Source: an uncultured bacterium (lineage in GTDB: Bacteria; Patescibacteriota; Minisyncoccia; Phycocordibacterales; GWA1-40-21). Taken from it: a stretch of DNA of 64,000 nucleotides. Below are positions 1,091 to 44,002 of this stretch, piece after piece. The DNA lies in NCBI GenBank assembly GCA_903823865.1, contig CAIJUJ010000027.1, forward strand, positions 12,065-76,064. Reading direction: 5' to 3'. A program made the translations under genes and the position numbers. The notes below the pieces were generated by a model. It worked only from the letters and a program-made list of their open reading frames with translations. It had not been told where the DNA came from and did no database searches. Numbering within the stretch: position 1 is the stretch's first letter; each line of letters begins with the position of its first letter.

Positions 1091-2545
1091 CTATATGGAT
1101 TCAATCGCTTTTTTAATCCTATTTATAGATTCATTTTTACCCAAAACAAACAAAAGTGTAAATGGATCAGGGGATTTTTCCTTACCAGATAAAGCCACCC
1201 TTAAAGGCCAGAGAACATTCCCCTTCCCTTTTTCCTCTGCGAGCTTCATGAGCTCTTGCTTTAATATTTCTAATGTAAAATCTTTATCAGAAATCTTATT
1301 CAAAATATCAGAAACTAAAGACAAATTTTCTTTAGCCTCGACTAAAGTTCCACCCTTTTTCCAAACAATCATTTCTTTTGATATTATTGGTATTTCAAAA
1401 TAATACTGTATATCGCCATCAACAACCATTTTATCTATATCTGAAAAAACATTGATTCTCTCGACTATTAAATCAGAAATCTTATTTATAATTTTTTCAT
1501 CTTGAAACTCTTTTGGAAACCTATTTTTTATTTCTGAAATTATTTTTTCTTTAGGAAGTTTTTTAATATATTCTTTATTAAGCCAAATGAGTTTCTCTTC
1601 ATTAAACTTTCCTCCTGCAGATTGGATTTTTTTAATATCGAAAGCTTCAATAATTTCTTCTATTTTCATAACTTCTCTTTCATCGCCTGGATTCCAGCCA
1701 ATAAATGAAAGAAAATTAATAACTGCTTCTGGTAAAAAACCTTCTTTTTTATAATCTAATATGTCTTTTGCACCGTCTCTTTTCCCAAGTTTTTTCTTGC
1801 CATCTGGCCCAATTATTGGAGGTAATGTTGCAAACTCCGGTCTTTTTATATCCAATGCCTCATACAGTGCTAGAAATTTTGGAGTTGAAGAAATAAATTC
1901 ATCAGCTCTAAAAATATGAGTGACTCCCATATATAAATCATCTATAATATGCGCAAAATTATATGTTGGATAACCATCACTTTTCATTAAAATAAAATCA
2001 TCTAGTGCTTCTGGTCCAGCAGAAAGTTCTCCACGAACTAAATCATTCCAAACATATCTTTTTACATCTTTTATTTTTAATCGAAGGGGTTTTGTTCCAT
2101 CCCATTTTGGTGGTTTGTCTGGTCTATGCTCACGAAACAGAAATGGCTTTTTTTCCTCATCTGCTTTTTTTCTAAATACCTCCAATTCTTCTTCTGTATA
2201 TGGGTCGGCATAAGCTAAATCTTTTTTGTATAATATTTCTGCGTATTTTTTGTATGTATCTAATCTTTGCGATTGTATATATGGGCTATTTGGTCCACCG
2301 ATATCTGGCCCTTCATCCCAATTAATATTTAACCATTTGAGAGATTTAATAATATGTTCTATCGAACCTTCAACCTCTCTTTTTTTGTCAGTATCTTCTA
2401 TTCTTAATATAAAAGTGCCATTATTTTTTTTAGCAAAAAGCCATGCAAATAGTGCAGTCCTAACACTACCTACATGCATAAATCCGGTAGGACTTGGTGC
2501 AAATCTGGTAACTATTTTAGAATTATTTTTCATGTTGTAAACCAA
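1091..2545 (-). CDS. gltX: Glutamyl-tRNA synthetase (class I).
   Basis: RFAPSPTGFMHVGSVRTALFAWLFAKKNNGTFILRIEDTD matches the GluRS HIGH region. 484 aa. Confidence 0.9.
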   Translation of the reverse strand: MVYNMKNNSKIVTRFAPSPTGFMHVGSVRTALFAWLFAKKNNGTFILRIEDTDKKREVEGSIEHIIKSLKWLNINWDEGPDIGGPNSPYIQSQRLDTYKKYAEILYKKDLAYADPYTEEELEVFRKKADEEKKPFLFREHRPDKPPKWDGTKPLRLKIKDVKRYVWNDLVRGELSAGPEALDDFILMKSDGYPTYNFAHIIDDLYMGVTHIFRADEFISSTPKFLALYEALDIKRPEFATLPPIIGPDGKKKLGKRDGAKDILDYKKEGFLPEAVINFLSFIGWNPGDEREVMKIEEIIEAFDIKKIQSAGGKFNEEKLIWLNKEYIKKLPKEKIISEIKNRFPKEFQDEKIINKISDLIVERINVFSDIDKMVVDGDIQYYFEIPIISKEMIVWKKGGTLVEAKENLSLVSDILNKISDKDFTLEILKQELMKLAEEKGKGNVLWPLRVALSGKEKSPDPFTLLFVLGKNESINRIKKAIESI

Positions 2546-3653
2546 TTTTAATTATTTCGTGAGCTATCAAATCAGAGGCGTCTGTTTTTATAAAACTTTT
2601 TGCTCCATCACTCATTTTTTGTGATATTTTTTTATCATCAATTATCCTAAATATTTCAGAAAGTAAAATGTTCGGAGAAAGATTTGACTCTTCAATGACT
2701 ACTGCACCACCTGAACGTGCATAATTATAAGCATTCTGACGTTGATGATTACCATTTGTCTCAGTAATAGGAATAATGATACTAGGAATACCCCACGTTG
2801 CTATTTCAAAAATAGCCGAACCAGCACGAGATATAATAAGATTTGATGCACCAGCAGCCATACCCATATTCAAATTATCTAAATAATCAAAAGCTCTATA
2901 TCTAGTTTTAAATTGGTTACCTGTCAAAATTACATCAGCAGTTGCTGTAACTTCCTGAATGTTATCTTTACCTGTCTGGTGCAATACGTAATATTTTTCT
3001 ACAAGATTATTTAATATACTCAATATCTTTTCATTGATTATTTTTGCGCCAAGAGACCCACCCAAAATAAGTATTACCGGAATATTTTCATCAAGTTTTA
3101 GATATTGTTTTGCACTATCTCTCGGTGGTATCATCTTAACACTTTTTCTAACCGGATTACTTGTAACAGCAACTTTCTTCTCATCAAAAAATTTTGATGC
3201 TTCTGGATAAGAAACCGCGATCCTCTTTGCAAATTTTCCTGCCCAAATGTTTGTTCTTCCAGGAACACTATCTGACTCATGAATAACTACAGGTATTCTC
3301 AATAATTTTGCTGCAACCAAGACAGGAAAGCTCGAGTAAGCTCCTTTACTAAATATCACATCTGGATAAATATTAAAAACTTTAAAAATTGCCCCAATAA
3401 TTCCAAAAAATGTTTTAAATAAATCAAAAAAATTTAATAAAGAAAAATACGTTCTCACTTTACCAGCTGAAATATTTATGTATTCAATATTATTTTCAAG
3501 CAACATATCTGCATCGTGTGGTGAATCAGACATATAATAAAGCTGAACCGGTAGGAGTTTCCCTTCTTTGACTATTTGATTAATTTTTTCTGCAACTGCG
3601 ATAAGTGGGTAAAAATGTCCGCCTGTTCCACCACCAGTTAATAATATTTTCAT
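2523..3653 (-). CDS. murG: MurG, UDP-GlcNAc:lipid I N-acetylglucosaminyltransferase.
   Basis: N-terminal KILLTGGGTGGHFYPLIAVAE glycine-rich MurG signature. Sits inside the mraY-ftsW-murG synteny. Confidence 0.9.
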   Translation of the reverse strand: MKILLTGGGTGGHFYPLIAVAEKINQIVKEGKLLPVQLYYMSDSPHDADMLLENNIEYINISAGKVRTYFSLLNFFDLFKTFFGIIGAIFKVFNIYPDVIFSKGAYSSFPVLVAAKLLRIPVVIHESDSVPGRTNIWAGKFAKRIAVSYPEASKFFDEKKVAVTSNPVRKSVKMIPPRDSAKQYLKLDENIPVILILGGSLGAKIINEKILSILNNLVEKYYVLHQTGKDNIQEVTATADVILTGNQFKTRYRAFDYLDNLNMGMAAGASNLIISRAGSAIFEIATWGIPSIIIPITETNGNHQRQNAYNYARSGGAVVIEESNLSPNILLSEIFRIIDDKKISQKMSDGAKSFIKTDASDLIAHEIIKIGLQHEK

Positions 3654-3661
3654 AATAAATT

Positions 3662-4777
3662 TTATACTTTAAATGCTCTACTAAACTTTGATACGTTCAA
3701 AACAATTCCCATTTCAAGCAAGACCAAAAGCATTGCTGTCCCTCCTTGGCTAAAAAATGCAAGCGGTAAACCTGAAAAGGGTATTATACCAAGAACTGAA
3801 GCCATATTTGTAAACGACTGCAGTACAGTAAGTATAACAATTCCAACTACTAAAAGTCCACCAAAAATATCAGGAGACCTGATTGCGATTCTAAAACCAC
3901 GAAAACAAAAAAATAAGAAAATGACTACAATCGCAACGCAGGCAACAAAACCGCCTTCCTCTGCAAGAACTGCAAAAATTGTATCACTTATGGATTCAGG
4001 CAAGAATTTGTACTTTTGTACACTCTGACCAAGACCTTTCCCGAAAACTTGTCCTGAACCAACAGCGATTAATGATTGTTGAACTTGATAACCAGAAGTC
4101 TGTGAATTGTCTCCTGGGTTTATAAAAGTTTCAATTCTTGACATAACATATGGTCTAGTAAACGCAAGAAATGCAATTATCGCGACCCCAAGTGCACCAA
4201 GAACTAAAACATATCTAAATTTTCCACCAGCTACAAGAAACATTGTGGTGCAAGTAGCAGCAATAATTAGAAATGAGTCAGTGTCTGGTTGGCTTAATAA
4301 AATTAACCCGGAAATCGCAATAAGAATTAAAAGTGGAATAAAACCAAATTTTATTGTAGAAACTTTTTCCTTAACTGAAGACAACCAAGCAGACCAATAT
4401 ATAATAAAACCAATATTTAAAATGGTTACTGGCTGAAAAGAAAAACCAAAAATTGAAATCCATCTTTTTGCAAACGTATTAAGATTTGTTCCTACATGCG
4501 GAACAAAAACTAATAATGTCAAAATAATTGACGCAGCAAAAATTGCTAATGAATATTTTTTGTAAATTTTATAATCAATTTTTGAAAACACAAAACAAGC
4601 CAATAAACCAAAAACTATTCCAAAAAAAAGTTGCTTTAATACGACCGATGTAAATTGGATACTATCTTTTGCCAAAATTCCCATTGACGCCGATATAAAA
4701 ATAATAAAACCAAAAATCAAAAGAGCAATTACAATACCTAGAAAAACTTTATCAATATTTTTTTTAGTTCCTGTCAT
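3662..4777 (-). CDS. ftsW: FtsW/RodA (SEDS family) peptidoglycan glycosyltransferase.
   Basis: Polytopic membrane protein, 371 aa, between mraY and murG as in dcw clusters. Confidence 0.8.
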   Translation of the reverse strand: MTGTKKNIDKVFLGIVIALLIFGFIIFISASMGILAKDSIQFTSVVLKQLFFGIVFGLLACFVFSKIDYKIYKKYSLAIFAASIILTLLVFVPHVGTNLNTFAKRWISIFGFSFQPVTILNIGFIIYWSAWLSSVKEKVSTIKFGFIPLLILIAISGLILLSQPDTDSFLIIAATCTTMFLVAGGKFRYVLVLGALGVAIIAFLAFTRPYVMSRIETFINPGDNSQTSGYQVQQSLIAVGSGQVFGKGLGQSVQKYKFLPESISDTIFAVLAEEGGFVACVAIVVIFLFFCFRGFRIAIRSPDIFGGLLVVGIVILTVLQSFTNMASVLGIIPFSGLPLAFFSQGGTAMLLVLLEMGIVLNVSKFSRAFKV

Positions 4778-5851
4778 CTAAATTTTAATCAAAGCCAAAA
4801 TTACACCAATAATCGCACAAACGATACTGACAACCCAGTATCTCATTGTGACTTTATATGCAGGCCAGCCGATTGCTTCAAAATGATGATGCACAGGTGC
4901 TACAAGAAAAACTTTTTTCCCATGTCTAAATTTCTTTGAAATGACCTGAACAATTACGGATAATGAAGTAATAACCAAAGGTAGAGCAATCACTGGTAAG
5001 ACTGCAATTCCCCTTCCTTCACCCATTGAATCAGTCATAAAGGCAACAATAGCAAGTGTTATTGCAAGTGCCATACTTCCAGTTTCGGACATATAAAATC
5101 TAGCCGGAGAAATATTAAACCACAAAAATGCAAGTATTGAACCAACAACGACTGCACAAAATGCCGCAAGATTAATTTGATTTTGAAAAAAAGCAATACC
5201 AGCATATGCAGAGAAAATCGCCGCAAAAACTCCTCCCGCAAGCCCATCTATCCCATCAATAACTCCTCCAGAATAAATAAATAAAGTTAATAAAACAAAA
5301 ATTGGAATAAATAGTATACCAAAATTAATTCCGCCCAAAAATGGAACACTGATCGTATTTACATCCAATTTAAAGTAAAACCAAAGTGCAATTAAAAAAG
5401 AAATTATACTCACAAAAAATAGTCTTTTTTTAAGTGAAAGCCCACCAGCATAATTTCCCCCAGTTCCTTTTATTTCTAAAATATCATCTACCAAGCCGAC
5501 TAAGGCACCTAAAATAAGTACGCAAAGTGGAATCCAGGTTTGGTCTCTACTTAAAAAATCTAATTTTGTAAATGTTCCATCAAAGATTTTTGCTAATAAC
5601 CAAAATGCAGCGGTAGTAATAAAAGCAGATGCCCAAATAACGATTCCGCCCATTCTTGGTGCGCTAACTTCCCTATCAGCGTGTAAACTATTAAATATTG
5701 GGGTTCCTCCACCGTCAATCGAGACGGTTTTAACCTTTTTCTTCCACATTTTATATTTGTAAAGATATTTTGTAAGAAGCGGAGTACCAAGCATTCCAAT
5801 AATGAAGGCTATAACTGAGGGCAAAATCACTTTGATAAGATTTATTGTCAT
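4778..5851 (-). CDS. mraY: Phospho-N-acetylmuramoyl-pentapeptide transferase.
   Basis: VAPVHHHFEAIGW motif and polytopic topology typical of MraY. Confidence 0.9.
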   Translation of the reverse strand: MTINLIKVILPSVIAFIIGMLGTPLLTKYLYKYKMWKKKVKTVSIDGGGTPIFNSLHADREVSAPRMGGIVIWASAFITTAAFWLLAKIFDGTFTKLDFLSRDQTWIPLCVLILGALVGLVDDILEIKGTGGNYAGGLSLKKRLFFVSIISFLIALWFYFKLDVNTISVPFLGGINFGILFIPIFVLLTLFIYSGGVIDGIDGLAGGVFAAIFSAYAGIAFFQNQINLAAFCAVVVGSILAFLWFNISPARFYMSETGSMALAITLAIVAFMTDSMGEGRGIAVLPVIALPLVITSLSVIVQVISKKFRHGKKVFLVAPVHHHFEAIGWPAYKVTMRYWVVSIVCAIIGVILALIKI

Positions 5852-5917
5852 CTTGATAATTGTTTGATTATTATACCTATTCTAACATTTTTTAAAATAA
5901 TTCGTAGTTGTTAATAA

Positions 5918-6850
5918 TTATTGTTCAGAAAACCTTTGTAGTGTTATCTGTTCCAATTTTATTACATCACTAAATCTACCATCAGTAGTTGAACCCAAAA
6001 CTACAACAATAACTGGGTGCATAAAACCAGCATCAAAAATCACAGCGAGATTGCCACCAGCAAGATTTGTAAAACCAGTTTTTGAAGCAATGAGACCAGA
6101 AATTTGGTTCATCGCTTCATTGGTATTTACAGCACTATGTATAATATTACTTTCTGAAATAAATTCCTCTTCTTTTTTGTTTGTGTCGGAAATTAATGTT
6201 GGATCCTTTTTAAGAATAGACTGGAAAAGCAAAGATATATCGAACGCCGAACTATAAGCACCACTCATATTTGTATCAATATCAAGACCAGTTTCATTTA
6301 TAAAAAACGTATCATTCATTTTTAAATTTGCTGCTTTTTCATTCATTATTTTTACAGTATCTTTATTATTTACTGCTTCATAATAATTTAGAGCTGAAGC
6401 TATAGCGTGCATTCCATCATTTGATGAAGTAATTAATGAAAAATCCAACAAATCTTTTAATTTCCATTTTTCTCCAACGATAAGCCCGGTATCACCTTCC
6501 ATTGCAACATCATTTTTAGTAATTGTAATAATTGTGGTCTCGGGCATAATATCAAAAACAACAAGCCCAGACATAAGTTTTGTGATTGAAGCCAATGGTA
6601 ATTTTTCGTGTTCATCCTTAGCAAAAATTGGTTTTTGGTCAATTACATCATAAACATAATATGATTTTGCTTTGATACTATTTAATACGGCATCGTAGTC
6701 AAACTTTTTTTGTTCAATAGTTTGACCTGAAATCATTTTGATATTTTCACTTTCTTTTTTCGAATAGAAAGTGAAACACAAAACAATCACAGCCACTATT
6801 GCTGAAATTATCAGTAATTTATTTTCTTTTATAAAATTTTTGAAATACAT
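5918..6850 (-). CDS. Serine-type D-Ala-D-Ala carboxypeptidase (S11 / PBP5-like), membrane anchored.
   Basis: SxxK (ASITKLMS), SxN (SSND) and KTG (SKTGFT) motifs in the right order. Confidence 0.75.
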   Translation of the reverse strand: MYFKNFIKENKLLIISAIVAVIVLCFTFYSKKESENIKMISGQTIEQKKFDYDAVLNSIKAKSYYVYDVIDQKPIFAKDEHEKLPLASITKLMSGLVVFDIMPETTIITITKNDVAMEGDTGLIVGEKWKLKDLLDFSLITSSNDGMHAIASALNYYEAVNNKDTVKIMNEKAANLKMNDTFFINETGLDIDTNMSGAYSSAFDISLLFQSILKKDPTLISDTNKKEEEFISESNIIHSAVNTNEAMNQISGLIASKTGFTNLAGGNLAVIFDAGFMHPVIVVVLGSTTDGRFSDVIKLEQITLQRFSEQ

Positions 6851-7473
6851 TATTCTTTTATGGTATCAGCTGGGGTTTCCATCTGGCTTTCTAAATCTGC
6901 GTTTGCTTCATCTTGACTTTCTTTTTGTTCTTCGGCTTGTTGTGAATTTTTATAACTTTCAATTTCATTTCTTGCGTCAGTATAATTTGGCATATCTTCC
7001 ATTTTTGTGATTCCCATGAAACTTAGCATTTCAAAAGTTGGTTTATACAAGAATACTCTTTGATCTTTTGGATTTGGAACTTTTTCAATCAAACCACGAA
7101 TCATCAAATTTCTAATAATAAAACTTGATTGAACTCCTCTTATATAATCTATTTCCGAACGTGATATTGGCCCTTGATAAATAATAATTGAAAGTGTTTC
7201 AAGCCCAGCTCTACCCAAATCTCGAACAAGTTCCTCCTTTGTGAGTTTTTCAATAAGTTCTGAAGTGTCTTTTGATGTTCCAAGTGTGACTTCGTCATCT
7301 TTGAATATCAATACGATTCCTCTATTCGTGAGATTCGTTTCAAGATTTTTTAATGAAGCTAAAATTTCTTCTTCGGTCTTTTCAAAAATTTGTCCGAGTT
7401 TTTTTATAGAAACCGGCTCACCTTTCCAGAAAAGTACGGACTCTATTTGTTTTTCTAAGTTATTTTCTTGCAT
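6850..7473 (-). CDS. scpB: Segregation and condensation protein B.
   Basis: Winged-helix ScpB pattern (ETLSIIIYQGPISRSEIDYIRGV) and acidic C-terminal tail. Confidence 0.8.
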   Translation of the reverse strand: MQENNLEKQIESVLFWKGEPVSIKKLGQIFEKTEEEILASLKNLETNLTNRGIVLIFKDDEVTLGTSKDTSELIEKLTKEELVRDLGRAGLETLSIIIYQGPISRSEIDYIRGVQSSFIIRNLMIRGLIEKVPNPKDQRVFLYKPTFEMLSFMGITKMEDMPNYTDARNEIESYKNSQQAEEQKESQDEANADLESQMETPADTIKE

Positions 7474-7485
7474 GATAGTTTTTTA

Positions 7486-7968
7486 TTATAATATATTTCT
7501 TTCCATCTTTTTACTTACTTCCTTAAAACCCATACTTGTCCAAACAGCCACTCCTAATTTATTTTTAGTATTTACCGAAAGTTCAATTTTTTTAATTTTC
7601 TTTTTCTTAAGAATACCGGCCATGTAATTAAAAATCATTTTGCCTAATCCCAACCCTCTATATTTCTTTTGAATATACATTGTCTCTAAATAAGCAATTT
7701 TATCTAAAATAAATATTGGTGTTAATTTGCGAATATTAAAAGAAAAATAACCAATTGGTTTTTCATTTTTCTCAACAATGTAATAATATGTATTTGGTTT
7801 TTTTATATCCCTAGATATAAACTTTTTATATATTAATTCAACTGTAACACCTTTTTTATATCTATTATCAAAATTACGATGATAATCTAAAATTTCTTGA
7901 TCACTTTTAACAAGAAAAGGAATATCTTTTTTTGTCGCTCTATAAATATTTATTTTATCTTTTAACAT
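7486..7968 (-). CDS. GNAT family N-acetyltransferase.
   Basis: Motif A-like QKKYRGLGLGKMIF. Confidence 0.6.
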   Translation of the reverse strand: MLKDKINIYRATKKDIPFLVKSDQEILDYHRNFDNRYKKGVTVELIYKKFISRDIKKPNTYYYIVEKNEKPIGYFSFNIRKLTPIFILDKIAYLETMYIQKKYRGLGLGKMIFNYMAGILKKKKIKKIELSVNTKNKLGVAVWTSMGFKEVSKKMERNIL

Positions 7969-7979
7969 TTTTTTGATAA

Positions 7980-8708
7980 TTAATATGAAGGCACACCTAA
8001 ATGCTTCGTTTCCATGTGTATATCTTCAAATTTATCTTTTTGATTGACCTCTATTATACCTTGTTTTACAAGCTCAAGCATGGCTAAAAAGCTAACAATT
8101 ACATTAATTTTCTCTGATTTTCCCATACCTGAAAAATCTTTAAAACTCATTTTGAGGGATGATTTTACTCTTTCAGTAAGGCTGGTTATCATTTCCTCGA
8201 GACTTACAACTTTTGTTACTTTTACTTTTGGTTTTACTTCAAATTTTGGTAGATTTTTAATAACATCAAAAATAGCCTTCGAAATATTTTCTTTACTCAT
8301 TTTAGTGTCTGGAGAAAAAACTGGTTCCATTTTTCTTGCATTTGGGAAGAATATAATTTGTTTACCAAAATTCTTTTTCACAAAAACGCTGAGTTCTTTA
8401 ATTTTTTTGTAAATTTTTAACTTCAACTCCAAATCTCGCATATCTGTCTGCTCTTCTTCTGAAAGATTGAGTGAAGGAATCAATGATCTTGATTTAATAA
8501 GCAAAAGTGTGGAAGCTACAACTAAAAATTCAGAAGTATCTTTTATTGAATACACTTCCCTATTTTGTAAATGAGCAATAAAGTCGTCTGTAACTTTAGC
8601 CAAAGAAACATCATTTATTAAAAGTTTTCTTTTTTCTATAAGGGAAAGTAGCAAGTCTAGTGGACCTTCAAAAATTTCAGTTTTGATTTTGAATAAATTA
8701 TTTTCCAT
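7980..8708 (-). CDS. scpA: Segregation and condensation protein A.
   Basis: N-terminal FEGPLDLLLSLIEKRKLLINDVSLAKVTDDF is the ScpA signature. Confidence 0.8.
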   Translation of the reverse strand: MENNLFKIKTEIFEGPLDLLLSLIEKRKLLINDVSLAKVTDDFIAHLQNREVYSIKDTSEFLVVASTLLLIKSRSLIPSLNLSEEEQTDMRDLELKLKIYKKIKELSVFVKKNFGKQIIFFPNARKMEPVFSPDTKMSKENISKAIFDVIKNLPKFEVKPKVKVTKVVSLEEMITSLTERVKSSLKMSFKDFSGMGKSEKINVIVSFLAMLELVKQGIIEVNQKDKFEDIHMETKHLGVPSY

Positions 8709-9237
8709 CGCTTAATTTTGCAAAATGATAATCATCTATAATTTTTCCATCTTTTAAGTATGCTTTTCTAGAGATTCCCTCAAGTTTAAAGCTATTTTTT
8801 AGTAAAACTTTTTGAGAACCCTTGTTCCAAGGAAAAGTTTTTGCTTCAACTCTTTTTATTTCCTTAAAATTTTTAAAAATATATTTTATATAAATTTTGG
8901 TTGCCTCTGACATAATTCCTTTTCCCCAATATTTTTCTCCAAGCCAATATCCAAAACCCATTATAAATGTTTGTTTTTTAATATCACCACCAATAGCTCC
9001 AGCAACATCTCCATCTATATCAATAACAAAATTAATAATTGGACTAATTTTGTACTTTTTTAAAGAATGTTTTACCCATTTTTTTGCTTCATCAAGTGTA
9101 TATGGGTATGGGAAACCTTCAAACATATTTCTAGCTATTTTTTTGTTATTTGCATTTTTAGCCAAAGAAAACTCGTCTCCTTTTTTCCAAGTTCTTATAA
9201 TAAATCCTTTTCCTTTTAAAATTATTTGTTTATTCAT
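8698..9237 (-). CDS. GNAT acetyltransferase, RimJ/RimL-like.
   Basis: GFGYWLGEKYWGKGIMSEA region typical of RimJ-like GNATs. Confidence 0.65.
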   Translation of the reverse strand: MNKQIILKGKGFIIRTWKKGDEFSLAKNANNKKIARNMFEGFPYPYTLDEAKKWVKHSLKKYKISPIINFVIDIDGDVAGAIGGDIKKQTFIMGFGYWLGEKYWGKGIMSEATKIYIKYIFKNFKEIKRVEAKTFPWNKGSQKVLLKNSFKLEGISRKAYLKDGKIIDDYHFAKLSDGK

Positions 9238-9626
9238 TAATTACTCAAAATTATATTAGCAACTTTTTTTAAGTCTTCAATTTTTGGATGAGTTGCTCTT
9301 TCTGGATTTAGTTCACCTCCATTATTGATTGGAACTAAATGTAAATGCACATGTGGTACACCAAATCCTTCTACAGCTAAACCAACTCTTTTAGGTTTTA
9401 ATTTTGATTTTAATATTTTTGCAATTTCTTTTCCTTTTAACATCAACTCACTATATTTATTATCTTCAAGATCAAAAAGATAATCATTATGTTCTTTAGG
9501 AATTAATAAGGTATGACCTGGATTTATCTGCCCTTGATCAAGAAAAGCAAAATAATTTTCATCTTCCCATATTTTAAGACAGGGTATTTCTCCTTTTATT
9601 ATTTTACAAAATATACAATCCTCCAT
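9237..9626 (-). CDS. HIT family (histidine triad) hydrolase.
   Basis: HVHLHLVP histidine triad. Confidence 0.8.
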   Translation of the reverse strand: MEDCIFCKIIKGEIPCLKIWEDENYFAFLDQGQINPGHTLLIPKEHNDYLFDLEDNKYSELMLKGKEIAKILKSKLKPKRVGLAVEGFGVPHVHLHLVPINNGGELNPERATHPKIEDLKKVANIILSN

Positions 9627-9627
9627 A

Positions 9628-11025
9628 TTATTTTTTCTTTTTTATCTCAATTCCCAAATCTCTTAATTGTTCGTTTGGAATTTCAGAAGGAGAACCCATC
9701 ATTAAATCTTTTCCTTCTCCTGTTTTAGCAAACGCAATAACTTCACGAATATTTGGCTCGTTGTTTAATATCATCACGATTCTATCTATACCAGGAGCAA
9801 ATCCTGCATGTGGTGGAGTACCATATTTGAATGCTTCAAGCATATGTCCGAATCTTTTTTGCTGATCATCATCACTAATTCCAAGATGCTCAAATACTTT
9901 CTTTTGTACATCTGATTTATGAATTCTTACACTTCCTGAACTCAATTCAAGTTGATTTAAGACAAGGTCATAAGCTTTTGCTTTTATAGATAACAAATCT
10001 TTACCCGCCATAAAATTTTCTAAATCTTCATCTTTTACTGCACAGAATGGATGATGTGTTGCAGACAATTTACCATCCTCGCCTTTTTCAAACATAGGAA
10101 AATCTACAACCCAAACAAATGAGAGTTCGTTTTTATCTTCTTTATTTTTTCTCATATCTGGCTTATCTGAACCAAATTTTTCCATAGAATCTTTGTAAGT
10201 GATTCTAGGAAAAGGTACCTGTGTAATATGTTTTTCTGGATACAATTTTGTAACCAACTCAATAAACATCTTTTCAGTTAACTTAAGAACATCTTCTTGA
10301 TCAACAAATGACATTTCATAATCAAACTGTGTAAATTCTGGTTGTCTATCACCTCTTGTATCTTCATCTCTGAAACATCTCGCTATCTGAAAATATTTTT
10401 CAAAACCAGCAACCATACACAATTGTTTAAATTGTTGTGGTGATTGTGGCAATACATAAAATTTTCCATTCTCAAGTCTTGATGGAACAACATATTCACG
10501 AGAACCCTCAGGTGTACCTTTCATTAAAATTGGAGTTTCAATTTCAACAAAATTTTCTTTGTGCATATAATCTCTGAAAAAAGAAATAATTTTATCTCTG
10601 TCACGAATATTTTTTTGCATTCTTGGTCTTCGCAAATCCAAATATCTATATTTCAAACGAGCATCTTCACCAATTTCAATTCCATCTCCCCTGACATCAA
10701 TAGCTGGAGTAAGTGCTTCATTTAAAACATTAATAGATAAAACTTCTATTTCAACGCTACCATTTACTTCATCTTTGTTTACCATTCTTTCTGGACGAGC
10801 ATTTACTTTTCCAGAAACTTCAAGAACCCATTCAGAACGAACAGTGTTTGCCAAAGTATGTGCTTCTTTATGATTTGGAAGTGCAACCATCTGAACTTTT
10901 CCAGACATATCGCGAAGGTCAATAAAAATAAGTTTGCCGTGATCTCGTCTAACATCCACCCAGCCACAGATTTTTACTTCCTCTCCAACTTTTTTATTTA
11001 ATTCTCCAATGTATGTACGTTGCAT
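9628..11025 (-). CDS. aspS: Aspartyl-tRNA synthetase, short form without GAD insertion (465 aa).
   Basis: Class II motifs FQIARCFRDEDTRGDRQPEFTQFDYEMSF, HHPF and GFAPGIDRIVM. Confidence 0.85.
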   Translation of the reverse strand: MQRTYIGELNKKVGEEVKICGWVDVRRDHGKLIFIDLRDMSGKVQMVALPNHKEAHTLANTVRSEWVLEVSGKVNARPERMVNKDEVNGSVEIEVLSINVLNEALTPAIDVRGDGIEIGEDARLKYRYLDLRRPRMQKNIRDRDKIISFFRDYMHKENFVEIETPILMKGTPEGSREYVVPSRLENGKFYVLPQSPQQFKQLCMVAGFEKYFQIARCFRDEDTRGDRQPEFTQFDYEMSFVDQEDVLKLTEKMFIELVTKLYPEKHITQVPFPRITYKDSMEKFGSDKPDMRKNKEDKNELSFVWVVDFPMFEKGEDGKLSATHHPFCAVKDEDLENFMAGKDLLSIKAKAYDLVLNQLELSSGSVRIHKSDVQKKVFEHLGISDDDQQKRFGHMLEAFKYGTPPHAGFAPGIDRIVMILNNEPNIREVIAFAKTGEGKDLMMGSPSEIPNEQLRDLGIEIKKKK

Positions 11026-11215
11026 AAAATTATTATTAATCTATTAAAAACAAAACGCCCTCGCAAGAACCGAAAAATATTTTCGATTATTGCGAGGGCG
11101 AACGAGTCGCGGTGCCACCTCACTTGCTTCTCATTTATAGGGTTCTACTCACCAAAGGTTTTCTTCCCCAAACTCCACCGTGTTTTCGGCTTCAACGTTA
11201 AAGATATTATATAAT
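11026..11215 (-). promoter_or_regulatory. Candidate T-box riboswitch leader of aspS, compact glyQS-like.
   Basis: The minus-strand leader contains GAGGUGGCACCGCG (plus-strand 11106-11122), a near match to the T-box consensus AGGGUGGNACCGCG. The UGGC bulge predicts pairing to a G73 discriminator, which fits tRNA-Asp or tRNA-Asn. It is followed by an 11-bp terminator hairpin cgccctcgcaa/ttgcgagggcg (11056-11100) plus a U-run directly before the aspS ATG. This is one of the few GC-rich patches in the neighbourhood. Confidence 0.55.
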
Positions 11216-11863: not shown

Positions 11864-11896
11864 AAACCGCCGGATTTATCTCGGCGGTTTTATTTT
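11864..11896. terminator. Bidirectional rho-independent terminator between clpP-like (+) and trpS (-).
   Basis: aaccgccg-N9-cggcggtt hairpin flanked by A/T runs. Confidence 0.6.
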
Positions 11897-12873
11897 TAAT
11901 ATATTTCCACCCCCACTTTCTCTCTCACAACCTTCATTTTTTTATCTGCATTCATAGAGGCCTTTTTAGCACCATCTTTTAAAATTTCAAAAACAGCATC
12001 CAAATCTTTGGCTAATTTTTCTCTCTTTTCTCTCATTGGTTTTATAAAGGCAGACAAATCTTTTATAAGTAATTCTTTTGCTTCCTTGTAACCCATTCCC
12101 CCTTTTTGATATTTTTCTCTCAAATTTTTTAACTTTTCCGTATCAATAAATAATTTATGAATTGCAAAAATAGCAGATTCATCTGGATTTTTTGGTTCAG
12201 CAACTCCTTTTGAATCTGTGGGAATTTTCATAACGGCCTTTTTAATTTCCTCATCAGTAGCAAAAAGTGGAATGACATTGCCATAGCTTTTACTCATTTT
12301 TCGCCCATCTATTCCGGGTACTGTGTCAACATGGGAAAGAATTAGTGGCTCTGGTAATCTGAAAGTCTCCCCAAAAATTCTGTTGAACTTTTGAGCGGTG
12401 TCTCGAGCATATTCTACATGCTGTTTTTGATCTTGCCCCACCGGAACAATATCTGCATCTTGTATCAAAATGTCCGAGGCCATGAGCATTGGATAATCAA
12501 AAACCCCAACGTTGATTTCTTTATTTTTTGCTTCAGCGTCTTTGAAAGCATGGGCACGCATCATATATGGCATTGTTGTAATACAATTAAAAATCCAAGC
12601 AAGCTCTGTTACTTGTGGAATATCTGATTGTTTAAAAAGAGTTATTTTTTGTGGGTCAAGACCAATAGCGAGATAATCAAGTGCAACATTAATAATTCTT
12701 TGTTTAAGATCGGCTTTGTTTTGAACTGTTGTCATGGCATGATAATCAGCAATAAAAATATAGCTTTCATATTTATCTTGAAGATCTACCATTTGCTTCA
12801 TAGCACCAAAATAATTACCGATATGCACTGTACCGGTGGGTTTGACTCCTGAAAGTAATATTTTTTTATTCAT
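11896..12873 (-). CDS. trpS: Tryptophanyl-tRNA synthetase.
   Basis: HIGH-type motif (KPTGTVHIGNYFGA) and KMSKS. 325 aa. Confidence 0.9.
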   Translation of the reverse strand: MNKKILLSGVKPTGTVHIGNYFGAMKQMVDLQDKYESYIFIADYHAMTTVQNKADLKQRIINVALDYLAIGLDPQKITLFKQSDIPQVTELAWIFNCITTMPYMMRAHAFKDAEAKNKEINVGVFDYPMLMASDILIQDADIVPVGQDQKQHVEYARDTAQKFNRIFGETFRLPEPLILSHVDTVPGIDGRKMSKSYGNVIPLFATDEEIKKAVMKIPTDSKGVAEPKNPDESAIFAIHKLFIDTEKLKNLREKYQKGGMGYKEAKELLIKDLSAFIKPMREKREKLAKDLDAVFEILKDGAKKASMNADKKMKVVREKVGVEIY

Positions 12874-12902
12874 ATGATTATAATAACAAACTAATTAATT
12901 TT

Positions 12903-12946
12903 TTGAAAGACAAAAGGCGGGTTCGCTTCACGAACCCGCCTTTTGT
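12903..12946 (-). terminator. Terminator downstream of dnaJ.
   Basis: aaaggcgggttcg...cgaacccgccttt hairpin with flanking T/A runs. Confidence 0.6.
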
Positions 12947-12953
12947 ATTTATT

Positions 12954-24796: not shown

Positions 24797-26650
24797 TTAT
24801 TCCAAAACAGCTTTTATTCTCCTGACACCAGCACTTGATGCTTCTTCTTTTACAATTTTAAATTGACCAAGTTCCCCAGTATTTTTGACATGTGGGCCTC
24901 CACAAAATTCTGTACTAAAATCTCCGATTTTATAGACTTTTACCACATCGCCATATTTAGACAAATCAAAAGAAAGTGTTGTAACAAGTTTTTTTGCTTC
25001 TTCTTTTGGAAGTTCTAGCATTTCAACTGGTATTTTTTCAGCAATTTTTTGATTTACTAAGTCTTCAACTTGTTTTAACTTGTCAGCTGAAACTTTTTCT
25101 GGCCAATTAAAATCAAAACGCATTCTTTCGGCTGTAATATTACTTCCCTTTTGAACAATTTCTCCACCAAGTACTTTTCTAAGAGATGCAAGAAGTAAAT
25201 GCGTAGTTGTGTGATATTTTGTTTCCATTTCACCCGTCCCTCCAAGCCCACCTTTAAATTTCTGCTCGGACCCAGAACGAGACAAAGCTTGATGTGCCTC
25301 AAGATCTTTCTTAAATTTATCTTCATCAACAACTTTTCCTTTCTCTTTAGCCAATTCCTTGGTAAGTTCAAAAGGAAAACCATAACTGGTAAATAAAACA
25401 AATGGATCAATCCCTTTTTCAAATTCTTTCATTCCAGCCTGCAAGGTTTTTCTAAATTTTAACTCTTCTTTATAAATTTCTAATCTAATAATTTCTCTTT
25501 TATTATATGTTTCTGGATAAGCTTCCTTATAATATTCTAAAACAGTAGCAGTTAGATCAGCAAAATTACCTTGCTTTATTCCTAAAATATCAGCATATCT
25601 AATGGCTCGACGCAATAAACGACGTACAAAATAGCCCCGGTCAGTATTTGATGGAATAACACCATCACTAATCAAAAATATTGATGCCCTAAGATGATCG
25701 GCAATAACACGGTATGAAGTTGTGTATTTATGGTCAGTATATTTTGTATTAGAAATCTTTTCCAAAGAAGATATAAGATTTGCAAATATATCAATCATAA
25801 ATATATCGTTAGTGTTTTGAACAGCCATTGAAATACGCTCTAAACCGCCTCCAAAATCAATATTCTTTTTAGGTAATGGCTCGAATTTTCTATCGCTAAC
25901 TTTTTTAAATTCCATAAAAACAGAATTTCCAATTTCAATATATCGTCCACAGTCACAATTTGGATGGCAATATTTACCATACTTCGTATCATGCTCAACA
26001 AAATCAAATTCGTAAAACATTTCAGAATCAGCTCCACCAGGTTCACCAATAGGCATAGCTTCTGGCGCCCCACCTCTTGACCACCAATTTTTTTCACTAT
26101 ATGAAAATATTCTACCTCCCTGCATACCCAAATTAGCACCATTTTGTTCAGATTCTAAAATTACATCTTTTGCCTCAATTCCTTCTTTTCTAAAAAGTTC
26201 TTTCCAAATCGTCACTGCTTTAGTATCAGCTAATAGATTATTTTCTTTATTACCTGAAAAAACTGTGACATAAATCTTATTGGGATTAATCTTTAATTCC
26301 TTAGTTAAAAATTCAAAAATCCAAGGTATTTGTTCTTTTTGAAAATAATCACCAAAAGACCAGTTACCGAGCATCTCAAAAAATGTAGTATGGCGATTAT
26401 CACCAACTTCTTCTATATCACTAGTTCGAAATGATTTTTGAGAATCTGCAATCCTCTTGCCAAGAGGATGACTTTCACCTAGTAAATATGGCATCATTGG
26501 TTGCATACCAGAGCCAGTAAAAAGAGTGGTTGGATCATTTTCAGGTACAAGTGAAGCAGAAGGAATTATTTTGTGTCCCCTTTTTTCAAAAAATTTTAGA
26601 TATCGTTCTCGGATTTCTTTTGATTGCATTGTTATTAAAATATAGCACAA
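24797..26650 (-). CDS. alaS: Alanyl-tRNA synthetase, short form lacking the C-Ala domain (617 aa). Start probably at MQSKE (about 26629).
   Basis: N-terminal catalytic core (FTGSGMQPM...FFEMLGNWSFGDYFK) and editing-domain HxxxH (HTTTHLL). Confidence 0.85.
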   Translation of the reverse strand: MCYILITMQSKEIRERYLKFFEKRGHKIIPSASLVPENDPTTLFTGSGMQPMMPYLLGESHPLGKRIADSQKSFRTSDIEEVGDNRHTTFFEMLGNWSFGDYFQKEQIPWIFEFLTKELKINPNKIYVTVFSGNKENNLLADTKAVTIWKELFRKEGIEAKDVILESEQNGANLGMQGGRIFSYSEKNWWSRGGAPEAMPIGEPGGADSEMFYEFDFVEHDTKYGKYCHPNCDCGRYIEIGNSVFMEFKKVSDRKFEPLPKKNIDFGGGLERISMAVQNTNDIFMIDIFANLISSLEKISNTKYTDHKYTTSYRVIADHLRASIFLISDGVIPSNTDRGYFVRRLLRRAIRYADILGIKQGNFADLTATVLEYYKEAYPETYNKREIIRLEIYKEELKFRKTLQAGMKEFEKGIDPFVLFTSYGFPFELTKELAKEKGKVVDEDKFKKDLEAHQALSRSGSEQKFKGGLGGTGEMETKYHTTTHLLLASLRKVLGGEIVQKGSNITAERMRFDFNWPEKVSADKLKQVEDLVNQKIAEKIPVEMLELPKEEAKKLVTTLSFDLSKYGDVVKVYKIGDFSTEFCGGPHVKNTGELGQFKIVKEEASSAGVRRIKAVLE

Positions 26651-40985: not shown

Positions 40986-41025
40986 ATTTTTACTGAATTT
41001 GAAATAAAAAATTTTAAAATTTTTG

Positions 41026-41096
41026 TGGACTTAGGCAGAATCGAACTGCCGTCTCGTCAATGCGAATGACTCGTACTACCACTGTACTATAAGCCC
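41026..41096 (-). tRNA. tRNA-Ala (anticodon CGC).
   Basis: Manual fold: acceptor GGGCTTA/TAAGTCC with G3:U70, D-arm GTAC/GTAC, anticodon loop TTCGCAT, T-arm GGCAG-TTCGATT-CTGCC. Confidence 0.75.
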
Positions 41097-41120
41097 AAAA
41101 TTATAAAAATGTTTTGAAAT

Positions 41121-41615
41121 CTATACCTCAGCCTTAAGACCAAGATTGTTCTCTAAATAATTAATCGATATCTTCTTTCCTTTAATATTTTTTTCAAACA
41201 TTTCTTTATTTGTAAAATAAACCTTTACACCATTCTCAACCATTGCCTTTAGTGCAGAATCAAAATGTATTTTATTTAATGGTTTTACTTTTTGTTTTGT
41301 TGCCCACTCTCTACTCCATTGCTCGCGGTCGTTTGTAAAATTAGAATCTGGCAATACATAAACAGTACCGCCTTTGTCGAGCTCTCTAAACTTATCTTTA
41401 TCAGAAATCACAAAATAATATATCCCGTCTTCATAACCCTTGCGTGATTCATTATCAAACATTCTTACCAAAAAAAGAGTTGCTCCAGCAATATCCGGAC
41501 TTGCAAATAATAATTCACCCTCTTCTTTTTTTCTATAACTTTTTTGTTTTGGCTCTAGTTCAATAATGTCCTTATTTGCTGAGCCATGATAAAAATTTTC
41601 TGGTTTTTTTTCCAT
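41121..41615 (-). CDS. Hypothetical protein (164 aa).
   Basis: ORF only. Confidence 0.4.
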   Translation of the reverse strand: MEKKPENFYHGSANKDIIELEPKQKSYRKKEEGELLFASPDIAGATLFLVRMFDNESRKGYEDGIYYFVISDKDKFRELDKGGTVYVLPDSNFTNDREQWSREWATKQKVKPLNKIHFDSALKAMVENGVKVYFTNKEMFEKNIKGKKISINYLENNLGLKAEV

Positions 41616-41684
41616 ATAAAAATTATAACACTATATTAAATAGAGGCCAAATATCATCATAAAACCAGATATTTTTTACGTTTG

Positions 41685-41697
41685 TGGACCGCACCGG
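41685..41697 (-). repeat. Displaced copy of the tRNA-Ala(GGC) 3' end (gtggaccgcaccgg), about 115 nt downstream of the intact tRNA.
   Basis: Exact 13-14-nt GC-rich direct repeat of 41814-41826. The intervening segment carries a hairpin (gacaaaagcaaagca...tgctttttcgtc). Confidence 0.55.
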
Positions 41698-41813
41698 ACA
41701 TCTCCACCTACCGTGGCGGGTATCTTTCCATCTCACTTTGTTCGATACGAAAAGATCTTTCAATCCCGGGACAAAAGCAAAGCAGTTTGCTTTTTCGTCC
41801 CACTACTCCGTAG

Positions 41814-41886
41814 TGGACCGCACCGGGATCGAACCGGTCGCCTCATCCATGCCATGGATGCGCTCTACCAAATGAGCTAGCGGCCC
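41814..41886 (-). tRNA. tRNA-Ala (anticodon GGC).
   Basis: Acceptor GGGCCGC/GCGGTCC with G3:U70, anticodon loop ATGGCAT, T-arm ACCGG-TTCGATC-CCGGT. Confidence 0.85.
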
Positions 41887-41933
41887 TTTAAATTTGACCA
41901 AAAAAGTATATTATAAAAGATGTAAAAAATAAA

Positions 41934-42007
41934 GGACGATTAGCTCAGTTGGTTAGAGCATACGATTCACATTCGTAAGGTCACTGGTTCGAATCCAGTA
42001 TCGTCCA
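41934..42007 (+). tRNA. tRNA-Val (anticodon CAC).
   Basis: Acceptor GGACGAT/ATCGTCC, D-arm GCTC-AGTTGGTTA-GAGC, anticodon loop TTCACAT, T-arm ACTGG-TTCGAAT-CCAGT. Confidence 0.85.
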
Positions 42008-42013
42008 CAAAAG

Positions 42014-42050
42014 CAGAAAATCACGCGCAGGCGTGATATTTCTGTCTTTT
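42014..42050. terminator. Hairpin terminator after tRNA-Val (bidirectional).
   Basis: cagaaaatcacgc-gcag-gcgtgatatttctg plus T-run. Confidence 0.6.
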
Positions 42051-42087
42051 GTGGAAGGCACAGGTATAATTTGTTAACAAACAAATT

Positions 42088-42168
42088 ACCGAGCCGGGGT
42101 CGCGAGTACTTACGTAGAATTCGAGCGCAGTGAAAAAATTATACTTAGTAACTCGTGATACACAATTT
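42088..42168. repeat. tRNA-associated repeat, copy A (conserved ends gagccggggtcgcga ... tcgtgatacacaattt).
   Basis: Shares its 15-nt 5' and 17-nt 3' ends with 44085-44187. On the minus strand the 3' end reads TTGTGT-16 nt-TATAAT, a promoter-like sequence. Confidence 0.5.
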
Positions 42169-42892
42169 AAAACCCTGCGATTCTAGTAACAATAAAAATT
42201 AAAATTATTCCTAAAATAGTTGCAATTGTTGTCCATGCTTTTGGATGGCCATGATGACTCTCTGGCAATAAATCGCTTGCTCCAATATAAATAAAAAATC
42301 CACAAAATACTGAAACAATTATTGGTAAAATATTTATTGGAATAGTAACAAAAATAGAAGCTATTATTCCAACTACTGGAGCAAGTGCATCTATAAAAAG
42401 CCATTTTTTTGCAACTTTATTGTCACCCCCTGCACGGACAATCATATTCACAGTATTTATTCCGTCAGAAAAAGCGTGAATAAATATCGCGATTGCTAAA
42501 GCAATACCAATTGCTGGAGAAACTTGAAAAGAAAGTCCGACAATAATTCCATCAAACAAACTATGAAGCGATATACTCCCCGCTCCCAAACTTCCATTAT
42601 GTTTATGATTTTCGCATTCTTCTTCATGATTTGAATGTGGTATTAAAAATCTATCCAATATAATATAAGCGACAAAACCCAAAACTATCCAAAGTGCAAT
42701 CGTACTTGGTTGATAAAAAATGTTTCCCATTTTATACGCTTCGGGTAATAAATCAAAAAAGGCTACGCCTATGACAGAGCCAGCAGAAAAACCTAAAATT
42801 AGGTGAAGTTTGTCTTTAAACCTCAGAGCAAAAGTTCCGCCAAAAATTACAGAAAGAAAAATGGCTGTGGCTGAGATAATTAAAAAAGTCAT
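42167..42892 (-). CDS. ZIP family metal (zinc) transporter, ZupT-like.
   Basis: Eight TM, histidine-rich loop (HEEECENHKHNG), HAFSDG-type motif. Confidence 0.8.
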   Translation of the reverse strand: MTFLIISATAIFLSVIFGGTFALRFKDKLHLILGFSAGSVIGVAFFDLLPEAYKMGNIFYQPSTIALWIVLGFVAYIILDRFLIPHSNHEEECENHKHNGSLGAGSISLHSLFDGIIVGLSFQVSPAIGIALAIAIFIHAFSDGINTVNMIVRAGGDNKVAKKWLFIDALAPVVGIIASIFVTIPINILPIIVSVFCGFFIYIGASDLLPESHHGHPKAWTTIATILGIILIFIVTRIAGF

Positions 42893-42897
42893 AATAA

Positions 42898-43830
42898 TTA
42901 AAGTATCTGCGTTGATTCAATATCCTTTAAATGTTTTTTTGATTTAAACCAGAAATATGCAACGGAACCGAATGTTATAACTGGAGAAAGCCAGCTTGGG
43001 ATATTAAACCCGAAACTATCCGCAAGCATAATCATACCAAGAAATAATATTGAATACATTGCCCCGTTTTTTAGAAAAATATATTTTTTTATTCTCTCAA
43101 TATTACCGACGGTCAACTGTCTTACAACAAGAGCGCCCAGACCATTTCCTATTAAAATTAATGGAACTGAAAGCGTAAACGCAAATGCTCCAAGTACTCC
43201 GTCTATAGAAAAGGTTGCATCAATAACTTCTAGATATAAAATTTTGCTGATATCTGAAAGACCTTCTTTCATTAATTCTTTTTCTCCCTTTTCTGCATTT
43301 TGTTTAAAACCGTGTGTAATAAAAAATGCTGTTGAACCAATAACGGCACCAAAAGCCATCATTGGATTTATTTTCATTGCAAAATATACTGTGACACACA
43401 AAATAATTGAAACCACAGCATAAAACCAGACGCCTAACTCCATAAAAAATTTTTCGTGCTTCAAACCAAAATTTTTAGCTTCCAAAAATAGCCAATGAAA
43501 AAATAGAAAAATTAAAAACATTCCACCCCCAGCAAGAAGAAGTGGCGCACTTTTTTCAATTGAATCTTTTACGCCTGGATTACTGCTGAACGTCGCTGTG
43601 AGCGAACCAATAAACCCAAGCGATGGATTTGTCACCCAAACAATTATCCAAGGAAGTAATCCTCTAACAACAAATACTGCGAAAAGTAAACCCCAAAATA
43701 AAAACCACCTTCGCCCTTTTGGTTTCATTGTTGAAAGCACCTCTGCATTAATAATAGCGTTATCTATACTTGAAATAACTTCAAATAAACATAAACCACC
43801 AATAGTTATTATTATTGTAAAAATATTCAT
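42898..43830 (-). CDS. TerC/DUF475-family integral membrane protein.
   Basis: Polytopic. EVISSIDNAIINAEVL resembles the TerC-family DN motif. Confidence 0.55.
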   Translation of the reverse strand: MNIFTIIITIGGLCLFEVISSIDNAIINAEVLSTMKPKGRRWFLFWGLLFAVFVVRGLLPWIIVWVTNPSLGFIGSLTATFSSNPGVKDSIEKSAPLLLAGGGMFLIFLFFHWLFLEAKNFGLKHEKFFMELGVWFYAVVSIILCVTVYFAMKINPMMAFGAVIGSTAFFITHGFKQNAEKGEKELMKEGLSDISKILYLEVIDATFSIDGVLGAFAFTLSVPLILIGNGLGALVVRQLTVGNIERIKKYIFLKNGAMYSILFLGMIMLADSFGFNIPSWLSPVITFGSVAYFWFKSKKHLKDIESTQIL

Positions 43831-43921
43831 AACAAAATAATATCATAACTAATAAAAAAATACATTCCCACATGGATAATACTTGGAAAAATATAATTTT
43901 TGTGTTAATCTCTTAGCTACT

Positions 43922-43994
43922 GGGCCTGTAGCTCATCTGGTAGAGCGCCTCATTTGCAATGAGGAGGCAAGCGGTCCGAGTCCGCTCAGGTCCA
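43922..43994 (+). tRNA. tRNA-Ala (anticodon TGC), atypical T-loop.
   Basis: Acceptor GGGCCTG/CAGGTCC with G3:U70, anticodon loop TTTGCAA, T-arm AGCGG-TCCGAGT-CCGCT (C at position 55). Confidence 0.8.
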
Positions 43995-44002
43995 CAGTGA
44001 TT

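Follow-up and report, generated by a model that had tools for sequence, protein, structure and literature searches.

T-box riboswitches have been reported from Firmicutes, Actinobacteria, Chloroflexi, Deinococcus-Thermus and a few Proteobacteria (PMC2494555). Here we describe a leader RNA from a Patescibacteria-type host, i.e. beyond the phyla listed there. It lies in a 64,000-nt stretch of contig CAIJUJ010000027.1 (GenBank assembly GCA_903823865.1; the whole stretch is called the window below, and positions are counted from its first letter), where it occupies positions 11199..11046 of the minus strand (~155 nt), directly ahead of aspS, the gene for aspartyl-tRNA synthetase (AspRS). With a probability that we put at roughly 0.78, this leader is a real T-box riboswitch of reduced architecture, which attenuates transcription and senses uncharged tRNA-Asn. 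A T-box leader of aspS had been suggested in a preliminary description of this DNA, and the suggestion is borne out by the motifs, by two mutually exclusive folds and by conservation and covariation among relatives, which also display an AAC/GAC alternation of the specifier codon.

With canonical transcriptional T-boxes (RF00230, class I; B. subtilis tyrS type) the aspS leader shares a K-turn at the base of Stem I, an S-turn in Stem II, an NNC specifier codon followed by a purine, the 14-nt T-box sequence, the UGGN bulge, an antiterminator competing with an intrinsic terminator, and a position ahead of a synthetase gene. It lacks the IIA/B pseudoknot and Stem III of the canonical form, and its specifier is located in a terminal instead of an internal loop. 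A similarly truncated Stem I without elbow platform is known from actinobacterial ileS T-boxes (TBDB class II), as far as the work of Sherwood, Grundy and Henkin (2015) is cited in PMC7583486; an ultrashort Stem I is typical of translational actinobacterial T-boxes, in which Stem II and IIA/B compensate (PMC7583486, PMC11297988). The M. tuberculosis ileS type keeps the IIA/B pseudoknot (PMC11297988), which the aspS leader lacks. In both systems Stem II adjoins Stem I and would help to hold the anticodon. The ileS elements present their specifier in the terminal loop of Stem I, and they have kept Stem III. They are translational and operate through a sequestrator of the ribosome-binding site, whereas the aspS leader has a terminator and a U-run; gene, codon and phylum differ as well. 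With glyQS-type T-boxes the aspS leader has its shortness and the transcriptional mode in common, yet the reduction is nearly the opposite one, since glyQS elements keep a long Stem I platform and Stem III and have lost Stem II and IIA/B.

For the combination of an Asn-specific T-box with an AspRS gene and tRNA-dependent amidation there is reportedly a precedent in Clostridium acetobutylicum, where Saad and co-workers (2012 and 2013, cited in PMC4206432) are said to have found that AspRS expression is tied in this way to the charging of tRNA-Asn. That system is reportedly a full-size Firmicute T-box, in an operon with an extra aspS of the non-discriminating (ND) type and gatCAB, with other AspRS copies present. 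In our case the only aspS seen in the window bears the T-box, the operon has no gatCAB, and the RNA is minimal. Our leader is a T-box of minimal build, coupled to a terminator and equipped with an Asn specifier; it is conserved in Patescibacteria and otherwise of a known T-box kind. The preliminary description had called a T-box in a genome resembling the candidate phyla radiation (CPR) notable, and our literature search, confined to open-access papers, yielded none that links T-boxes to Patescibacteria or the CPR.

The features described next are all encoded on the minus strand. A candidate -10 hexamer, TATAAT, can be read from the sequence at 11206..11211, and relatives have TATAAT-like hexamers at equal distance from the leader; transcription may therefore start near A11199, the first leader base. 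A consensus promoter scan gave no full sigma-70 site on this strand. The ultrashort Stem I (11171..11199) was recovered by the Rfam alignment of the K-turn strands, by the minimum free energy (MFE) fold of the nascent leader and by de novo RNAalifold. It comprises three basal pairs (A11199-U11171, A11198-U11172 and C11197-G11173), a K-turn (GA) motif with GUUGAA facing GGA, and an upper helix of 4 bp (11190-11187 with 11180-11177) capped by the 6-nt terminal loop AAAACA (11186..11181). The K-turn is assigned at the level of sequence only, its UGA/GA strands aligning with the Rfam K-turn positions. Conservation across 42 leaders (see below) identifies the Asn codon AAC at 11184..11182 as the specifier and A11181 as its 3' purine, the feature as a whole spanning 11181..11184. 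AACA had been listed before as a specifier candidate, and it does fall into the column of the hairpin loop in which relatives show GAC-A, the following A being invariant. Stem I with its specifier loop thus folds upstream of the T-box sequence in both the MFE and the RNAalifold structure.

Stem II (11138..11170) was likewise obtained in the MFE fold and by RNAalifold, with conserved loop motifs and covariation in all seven modelled pairs. Its lower helix (11170-11166 with 11142-11138) leads to an internal loop in which AAGAAA faces GAGUAGAA, corresponding to the AGUA/GAA S-turn consensus, and the upper helix of 3 bp (11159-11157 with 11153-11151) is closed by a UUU loop. A purine-rich linker of 14 nt, UAAAUGAGAAGCAA (11124..11137), follows, which stays single-stranded in single-sequence and consensus folds. 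The T-box sequence itself, GAGGUGGCACCGCG (11108..11121), can be read directly and is supported by the Rfam alignment and by a motif count: the 12-mer GGTGGNACCGCG occurs once in the window, with ~0.05 chance matches expected even if one mismatch is allowed.

In the antiterminator (11092..11123; MFE fold and Rfam alignment; -11.5 kcal/mol), helices of 6 bp (lower) and 4 bp (upper) are separated by the 7-nt bulge UGGCACC and capped by a CUCGU loop. Within the bulge, UGGC at 11117..11114 is complementary to 3'-ACCG-5', the NCCA end of a tRNA with G73. The intrinsic terminator including its U-run extends over 11046..11100 and reaches -29.2 kcal/mol in RNAfold; as had been noted earlier, a hairpin (CGCCCUCGCAA...UUGCGAGGGCG, 11100..11056) is followed by a U-run (UUUUGUUUUU, 11055..11046) before aspS. 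Its 5' arm takes up the 3' strand of the antiterminator (11100..11092), so that the two folds are mutually exclusive. Unconstrained RNAfold of the nascent leader gives Stem I, Stem II and the antiterminator. Two mismatches interrupt the stem of the terminator, which a consensus terminator scanner missed and RNAfold detects. A weak antiterminator opposed to a strong terminator is the classic default-off logic of T-boxes.

This anatomy bears directly on the architecture that had been favoured at first, a glyQS-type T-box with a long Stem I and no Stem II, and on its variant, a translational T-box like those of actinobacterial ileS. The short leader would suit the former, and Stem I is of the ultrashort class found in translational ileS T-boxes (PMC7583486). 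However, a covarying Stem II with AAGAAA facing GAGUAGAA is present, Stem I is limited to 3 + 4 bp, and the Rfam alignment shows a deletion of 72 model positions in Stem I; the parts lost are distal Stem I, IIA/B and Stem III. As to translational control, a U-run comes after the switching helix, no ribosome-binding site or Shine-Dalgarno-like sequence lies within this helix, and the ATG is 20 nt past the U-run. The comparison with glyQS is contradicted by the anatomy, and we regard either form of this proposal as very improbable.

For comparison we gathered aspS loci and metagenome contigs (labelled L001, L014 etc.). A protein-guided scan with one genome per species yielded 80 aspS loci, nearly all labelled Patescibacteria (Taylorbacteria, Nomurabacteria, Azambacteria, Vogelbacteria, Paceibacterota, Uhrbacteria), and all but three of these records are labelled Patescibacteria-type or unclassified. 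The motif GGTGG[CT]ACC[GA]CG is present in 15 of the 80 loci, mostly ~85-105 nt upstream of aspS. A custom covariance model, R1, was built on six leaders with each of its 21 pairs verified; this checked six-sequence seed replaced MAFFT seeds including L014, L011, L004 or L043, in which Stem I was misaligned. R1 matches the window once (11088..11202, 118.5 bits), and among the 80 aspS loci it gave 17 further matches at E <= 1e-4 as well as a weak one in L001 (E = 0.12). In three cases the leader precedes a small open reading frame (ORF) that itself precedes aspS. A scan of metagenomes, in which an S-turn strand was required 18-48 nt ahead of the T-box, contributed another 26 strong R1 matches, 24 of them distinct, and nearly all metagenome matches with enough flank have an AspRS gene downstream. 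The enzyme encoded there is mostly of the bacterial type lacking the GAD insertion domain; six metagenome leaders (five strong R1 matches and one weak, L113) precede an archaeal-type AspRS, named aspartate--tRNA(Asn) ligase in NCBIfam. Conservation of the element ahead of aspS thus extends to 18 further species genomes and to no fewer than 24 metagenome contigs, and the R1 search as a whole provides 42 distinct homologous leaders upstream of aspS from Paceibacteria-type genomes and metagenomes.

Not all relatives are reduced to the same extent. Neither IIA/B nor a Stem III hairpin is found in the window and in at least seven leaders (L014, L116, L134, L159, L092, L094 and L011). IIA/B is retained in L008, L009 and L010, a Stem III hairpin in L022 and L023, and a short distal Stem I hairpin in L004, L043, L047 and L038; since relatives variously retain one or another of these modules, the clade displays a stepwise reduction. 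A hairpin of ~30 nt rich in A and U (CCGUYAAAAUYU...UUUYUUYGG) was seen only in L019:2519-2546, L022:455-485, L023:2862-2892, L092 and L159 (minus strand), either at the Stem III position or in the apical loop of the antiterminator; it is absent from the window. A different reduced T-box is present in three near-identical metagenome contigs (L136:1769-1900, L143:8259-8390 and L148:1977-2108), upstream of a longer aspS (579 aa in L136), with GAC apparently in a short terminal loop, no Stem II and an apparent IIA/B-like hairpin. To judge from these contigs, T-boxes of the short-Stem-I terminator type may occur beyond Patescibacteria.

In the alignment of the 42 distinct leaders, which was fitted to R1, standard pairs fill 98.8% of the 825 pair cells, and compensatory double changes are seen in 16 of the 21 pairs. 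None of 500 shuffles reached the observed values for pairing and covariation, and sliding the 3' partners by 1-3 columns lowered pairing to 39-49%. All modelled pairs of Stem I (6/6) and Stem II (7/7) show compensatory changes; in the antiterminator, three of the eight modelled pairs covary, four are invariant and one varies on one side only. Invariance of half of these pairs is expected for the T-box core. Almost all of the 42 leaders preserve the GA of the K-turn on both strands, with covarying pairs on its flanks, and in 39 of the 42 the antiterminator overlaps with a terminator that has a U-run behind it. As an independent check, RNAalifold was applied to a MAFFT alignment of six minimal leaders; it returned the same three elements and no others, with 12 of its 25 consensus pairs compensated.

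Such constraint is difficult to reconcile with a decayed T-box relic, in which the terminator would act as a constitutive or otherwise regulated attenuator without any sensing of tRNA. The idea draws on the reductive character of CPR genomes, on the very low Rfam score and on the loss of the Stem I platform, IIA/B and Stem III, all of which are regarded as important. Yet at least eight distinct leaders share the minimal layout, with compensatory changes in both their stems, I and II, and little or no variation is seen in the specifier and the A behind it, in the S-turn motifs or in UGGNACC. Moreover, if a terminator of -29 kcal/mol acted unconditionally before an essential synthetase gene, this would be harmful. 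We consider a relic improbable, if somewhat less so than the glyQS-type or translational arrangements.

The identity of the tRNA was deduced from the terminal loop of Stem I, which in every leader conforms to the pattern N-N-[A/G]-A-C-A with two freely varying first bases. The specifier reads AAC in 19 and GAC in 23 of the 42 leaders and no other triplet occurs, its first base never being U or C; the AC and the subsequent A are invariant or nearly so. How little separates the two forms can be seen from L130 and L137, whose hairpins (CCAG-CUAACA-CUGG vs CCAG-CUGACA-CUGG) differ by a single base. The register of NAC plus purine therefore points to Asn (AAC) in the window and to Asp (GAC) in many relatives. 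We also considered the frames AAA (Lys) and ACA (Thr) of the same loop and rejected them, because only the NAC register places the conserved purine 3' of the codon and explains why the variable base is limited to A or G. In addition, tRNA-Thr and tRNA-Lys have A73, a poor fit to UGGC. At the last base of UGGN, 34 of the 42 leaders have C, 8 have U and none has A or G, as expected from the earlier statement that the UGGC bulge suits a G73 tRNA; both bases would be compatible with G73 by Watson-Crick or wobble pairing. According to TBDB, a U pairs with G73 by wobble in Trp T-boxes likewise (PMC7778990). The lone tRNA-Asn gene in the gathered loci, in a locus without T-box (L069), has the anticodon GUU, G73 and a U1-A72 pair.

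A working T-box could alternatively have tRNA-Asp (anticodon GUC) as its ligand, in which case AAC would be read despite an A-C mismatch in its first position, or both tRNAs would be accepted. The regulated gene is, after all, aspS, 23 of the 42 relatives have GAC at the same place, and the anticodon-binding domains of the AspRS enzymes reveal no systematic difference between AAC and GAC loci. In E. coli and other well-studied bacteria, G73 is found in tRNA-Asp too. However, AAC is held across a whole clade and arose at least twice, which argues for selection on AAC itself, and the restriction of the first base to A or G yields exactly the codons of the two tRNAs that are substrates of a non-discriminating AspRS. 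T-boxes, furthermore, strongly favour Watson-Crick pairing between specifier and anticodon (PMC7778990). We therefore see tRNA-Asp as an unlikely ligand of the window leader, though it is the least unlikely of the alternatives.

The weak R1 match L113:1338-1468 (minus strand), upstream of a gene for an archaeal-type aspartate--tRNA(Asn) ligase, apparently has AAU-A in its loop, and a T-box-like leader in L110:5607-5729 (minus strand) stands ahead of a true asnS. The window encodes a tRNA-guanine transglycosylase gene, tgt, at 56968-58218 (minus strand). tRNAs with GUN anticodons, including tRNA-Asn and tRNA-Asp, are substrates of this enzyme and may bear queuosine at position 34; where present, queuosine-34 would face the C of the NAC specifier.

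Returning to sensing of uncharged tRNA-Asn, which is our preferred interpretation, we propose the following course of events, in which tRNA binding, tRNA identity, read-through and the transcription start are all predicted. Transcription would begin near 11199, and the nascent RNA would fold into the ultrashort Stem I, whose terminal loop presents AAC with the conserved A. The adjacent Stem II would buttress the codon-anticodon duplex through its AGUA/GAA S-turn. If tRNA-Asn (anticodon GUU, G73) is uncharged, its free GCCA end could pair with UGGC in the 7-nt bulge; the weak antiterminator would thereby be stabilised, and RNA polymerase would enter aspS and probably the genes behind it too. 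With aminoacylated tRNA, the stronger terminator and U-run would form and transcription would stop 20 nt before the start codon. Because Asp-tRNA-Asn and Asn-tRNA-Asn are both acylated, the signal read by the element would be limited to whether AspRS keeps up the charging of tRNA-Asn. Sensing of tRNA-Asn ahead of aspS would be a sensible feedback if AspRS is non-discriminating and charges tRNA-Asn too, as we infer from the specifier.

A number of observations speak against this interpretation or leave it without support. The match between specifier and gene (AAC vs aspS) holds only if AspRS charges tRNA-Asn. No gatCAB or asnS was found in the 21 window ORFs scanned or in the 8 kb past one window end, no GatA-like ORF lies beside aspS in the related loci, and a search of open-access literature on AsnRS or GatCAB in the CPR gave nothing. 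Likewise, a tRNA scan of the window identified no gene for tRNA-Asn or tRNA-Asp. With respect to architecture, the distal part of Stem I with the AG bulge and the distal-loop platform for the tRNA elbow is absent, unlike in canonical T-boxes, and neither the single-sequence fold nor the six-leader consensus fold places a helix of Stem IIA/B or Stem III in the linker; a hidden IIA/B-like pairing was neither predicted nor seen to covary there among the six minimal leaders. According to reviews, the Stem I platform, IIA/B and Stem III are needed in transcriptional T-boxes, for tRNA docking or for sensing of aminoacylation (PMC7583486, PMC11297988, PMC7778990), so function of the minimal form is not guaranteed. 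The covariation counts, finally, depend on a model-fitted alignment, and the Rfam T-box model RF00230 scores the leader at 28.1 bits, short of the gathering score of 93.

An Rfam scan had been put forward as a check: the gathering score is missed, yet RF00230 is still the top local Rfam match to the leader, with E = 1.6e-4 for a segment of 401 nt and 0.025 for the whole window. At gathering thresholds, Rfam reports four tRNAs in the window and nothing else. The RF00230 alignment is good over the K-turn strands, the specifier region and the antiterminator, but 72 positions of the Stem I model are replaced by 2 nt, and the region from Stem II through IIA/B to Stem III aligns poorly. We do not count the low score as a refutation, because the deleted modules account for it. 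None of the 18 related leaders tested reached the gathering score either; since Rfam places the window element and all 18 relatives far below threshold, lack of a significant cmsearch match is a misleading test here. Threshold-based Rfam annotation has overlooked a conserved clade of aspS leaders in Patescibacteria.

The history of the locus was approached through AspRS. In a crude neighbour-joining tree of the protein, the window sequence lies beside a coherent clade with AAC leaders (L014, L019, L022, L023, L034, L038, L043 and L047), and L011, also AAC, is placed apart amid GAC leaders; the switch between AAC and GAC has therefore happened more than once. The aspS gene of the window is a mosaic, i.e. 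a recombinant, in which the leader and about the first 130 codons match the AAC-leader clade. Residues 1-50 of its AspRS are 96-100% identical to the AspRS of that clade, and residues 106-400 are nearer to enzymes of the Taylorbacteria type, whose genes are preceded by a GAC leader or lack a T-box. With the ATG as reference point, the DNA between about -170 and +400 is 87-98% identical to L014 and L159, and farther on the identity is 58-83%. In L134, the same leader and N-terminal domain are joined to an archaeal-type (ND-type) catalytic core. The AspRS comparison brought up no residues of the anticodon-binding domain that segregate with AAC or GAC and so gives no support to a "specificity cassette"; the N-terminal domain is accordingly not claimed as carrier of tRNA specificity.

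Taken together, these results suggest a more comprehensive picture, to which we would give even odds. The leader would be a naturally minimised transcriptional T-box of ~155 nt that works with only the K-turn hairpin, the Stem II S-turn, the linker and the antiterminator, i.e. without elbow platform, IIA/B and Stem III, modules to which current models assign an indispensable part in rapid co-transcriptional capture of tRNA and in the sensing of aminoacylation. It would belong to a Patescibacteria-wide clade of aspS leaders invisible to Rfam, in which one base flips sensing between tRNA-Asp and tRNA-Asn, and the leader would be exchanged among lineages jointly with the ~130 codons at the start of aspS. 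The leader family extends T-box regulation to the candidate phyla radiation, and its pairing of an ultrashort Stem I with an intrinsic terminator puts to the test reviews that tie a short Stem I to translational control. The leader provides a natural minimal construct for asking what the decoding of tRNA and the sensing of its charge require, and its small size is attractive for engineered tRNA-responsive switches. The AAC/GAC alternation on orthologous aspS genes amounts to a natural specifier-swap experiment and may serve as a cheap genomic marker, the AAC form predicting a non-discriminating AspRS and tRNA-dependent asparagine formation in reduced genomes.

The leader region is intergenic, flanked by the divergent clpP (start near 11301; Pfam CLP_protease) and by aspS on the minus strand, and with ~49% its G+C content differs from the ~31-36% of the window. 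The regulated gene aspS (9628..11025, minus strand; NCBIfam aspS_bact, 590 bits, match in two stretches) has its ATG at 11025, 20 nt past the end of the U-run, and encodes a bacterial-type AspRS of 465 aa. In the comparison with NCBIfam aspS models, the first matched stretch stops near residue 294-296 in protein and profile alike; the match in two stretches with this break suggests that the GAD insertion domain is missing from the window AspRS.

Behind aspS, ten genes follow on the minus strand with overlaps or tiny gaps (1091-9626): HIT, GNAT, scpA, GNAT, scpB, dac, mraY, ftsW, murG and gltX, where dac encodes a D-Ala-D-Ala carboxypeptidase and gltX, the last in the run, is a second synthetase gene. 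A terminator scan of the window found no convincing terminators between aspS and these ten genes. From this gap-free arrangement without convincing terminators we infer that the T-box switch may gate an operon of roughly 10 kb ending in gltX. Neither R1 nor the Rfam T-box model gave a match in the window at alaS, at gltX or at a class-I synthetase gene (11896-12873).

Some further features of the window are listed here for completeness. Two sub-threshold matches to the ribosomal protein L20 leader, at 12847-12953 (plus strand) and 50904-51018 (minus strand), score ~30 bits against a gathering score of 58.7 and are probably due to chance. The alaS product (24797-26650) is short with 617 aa, and a UvrC homolog (46131-47396, minus strand) has 421 aa compared with 574 aa of the profile. 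The region 41025-43995 carries a tRNA cluster consisting of three tRNA-Ala genes (anticodons CGC, GGC and UGC) and one tRNA-Val gene (CAC).

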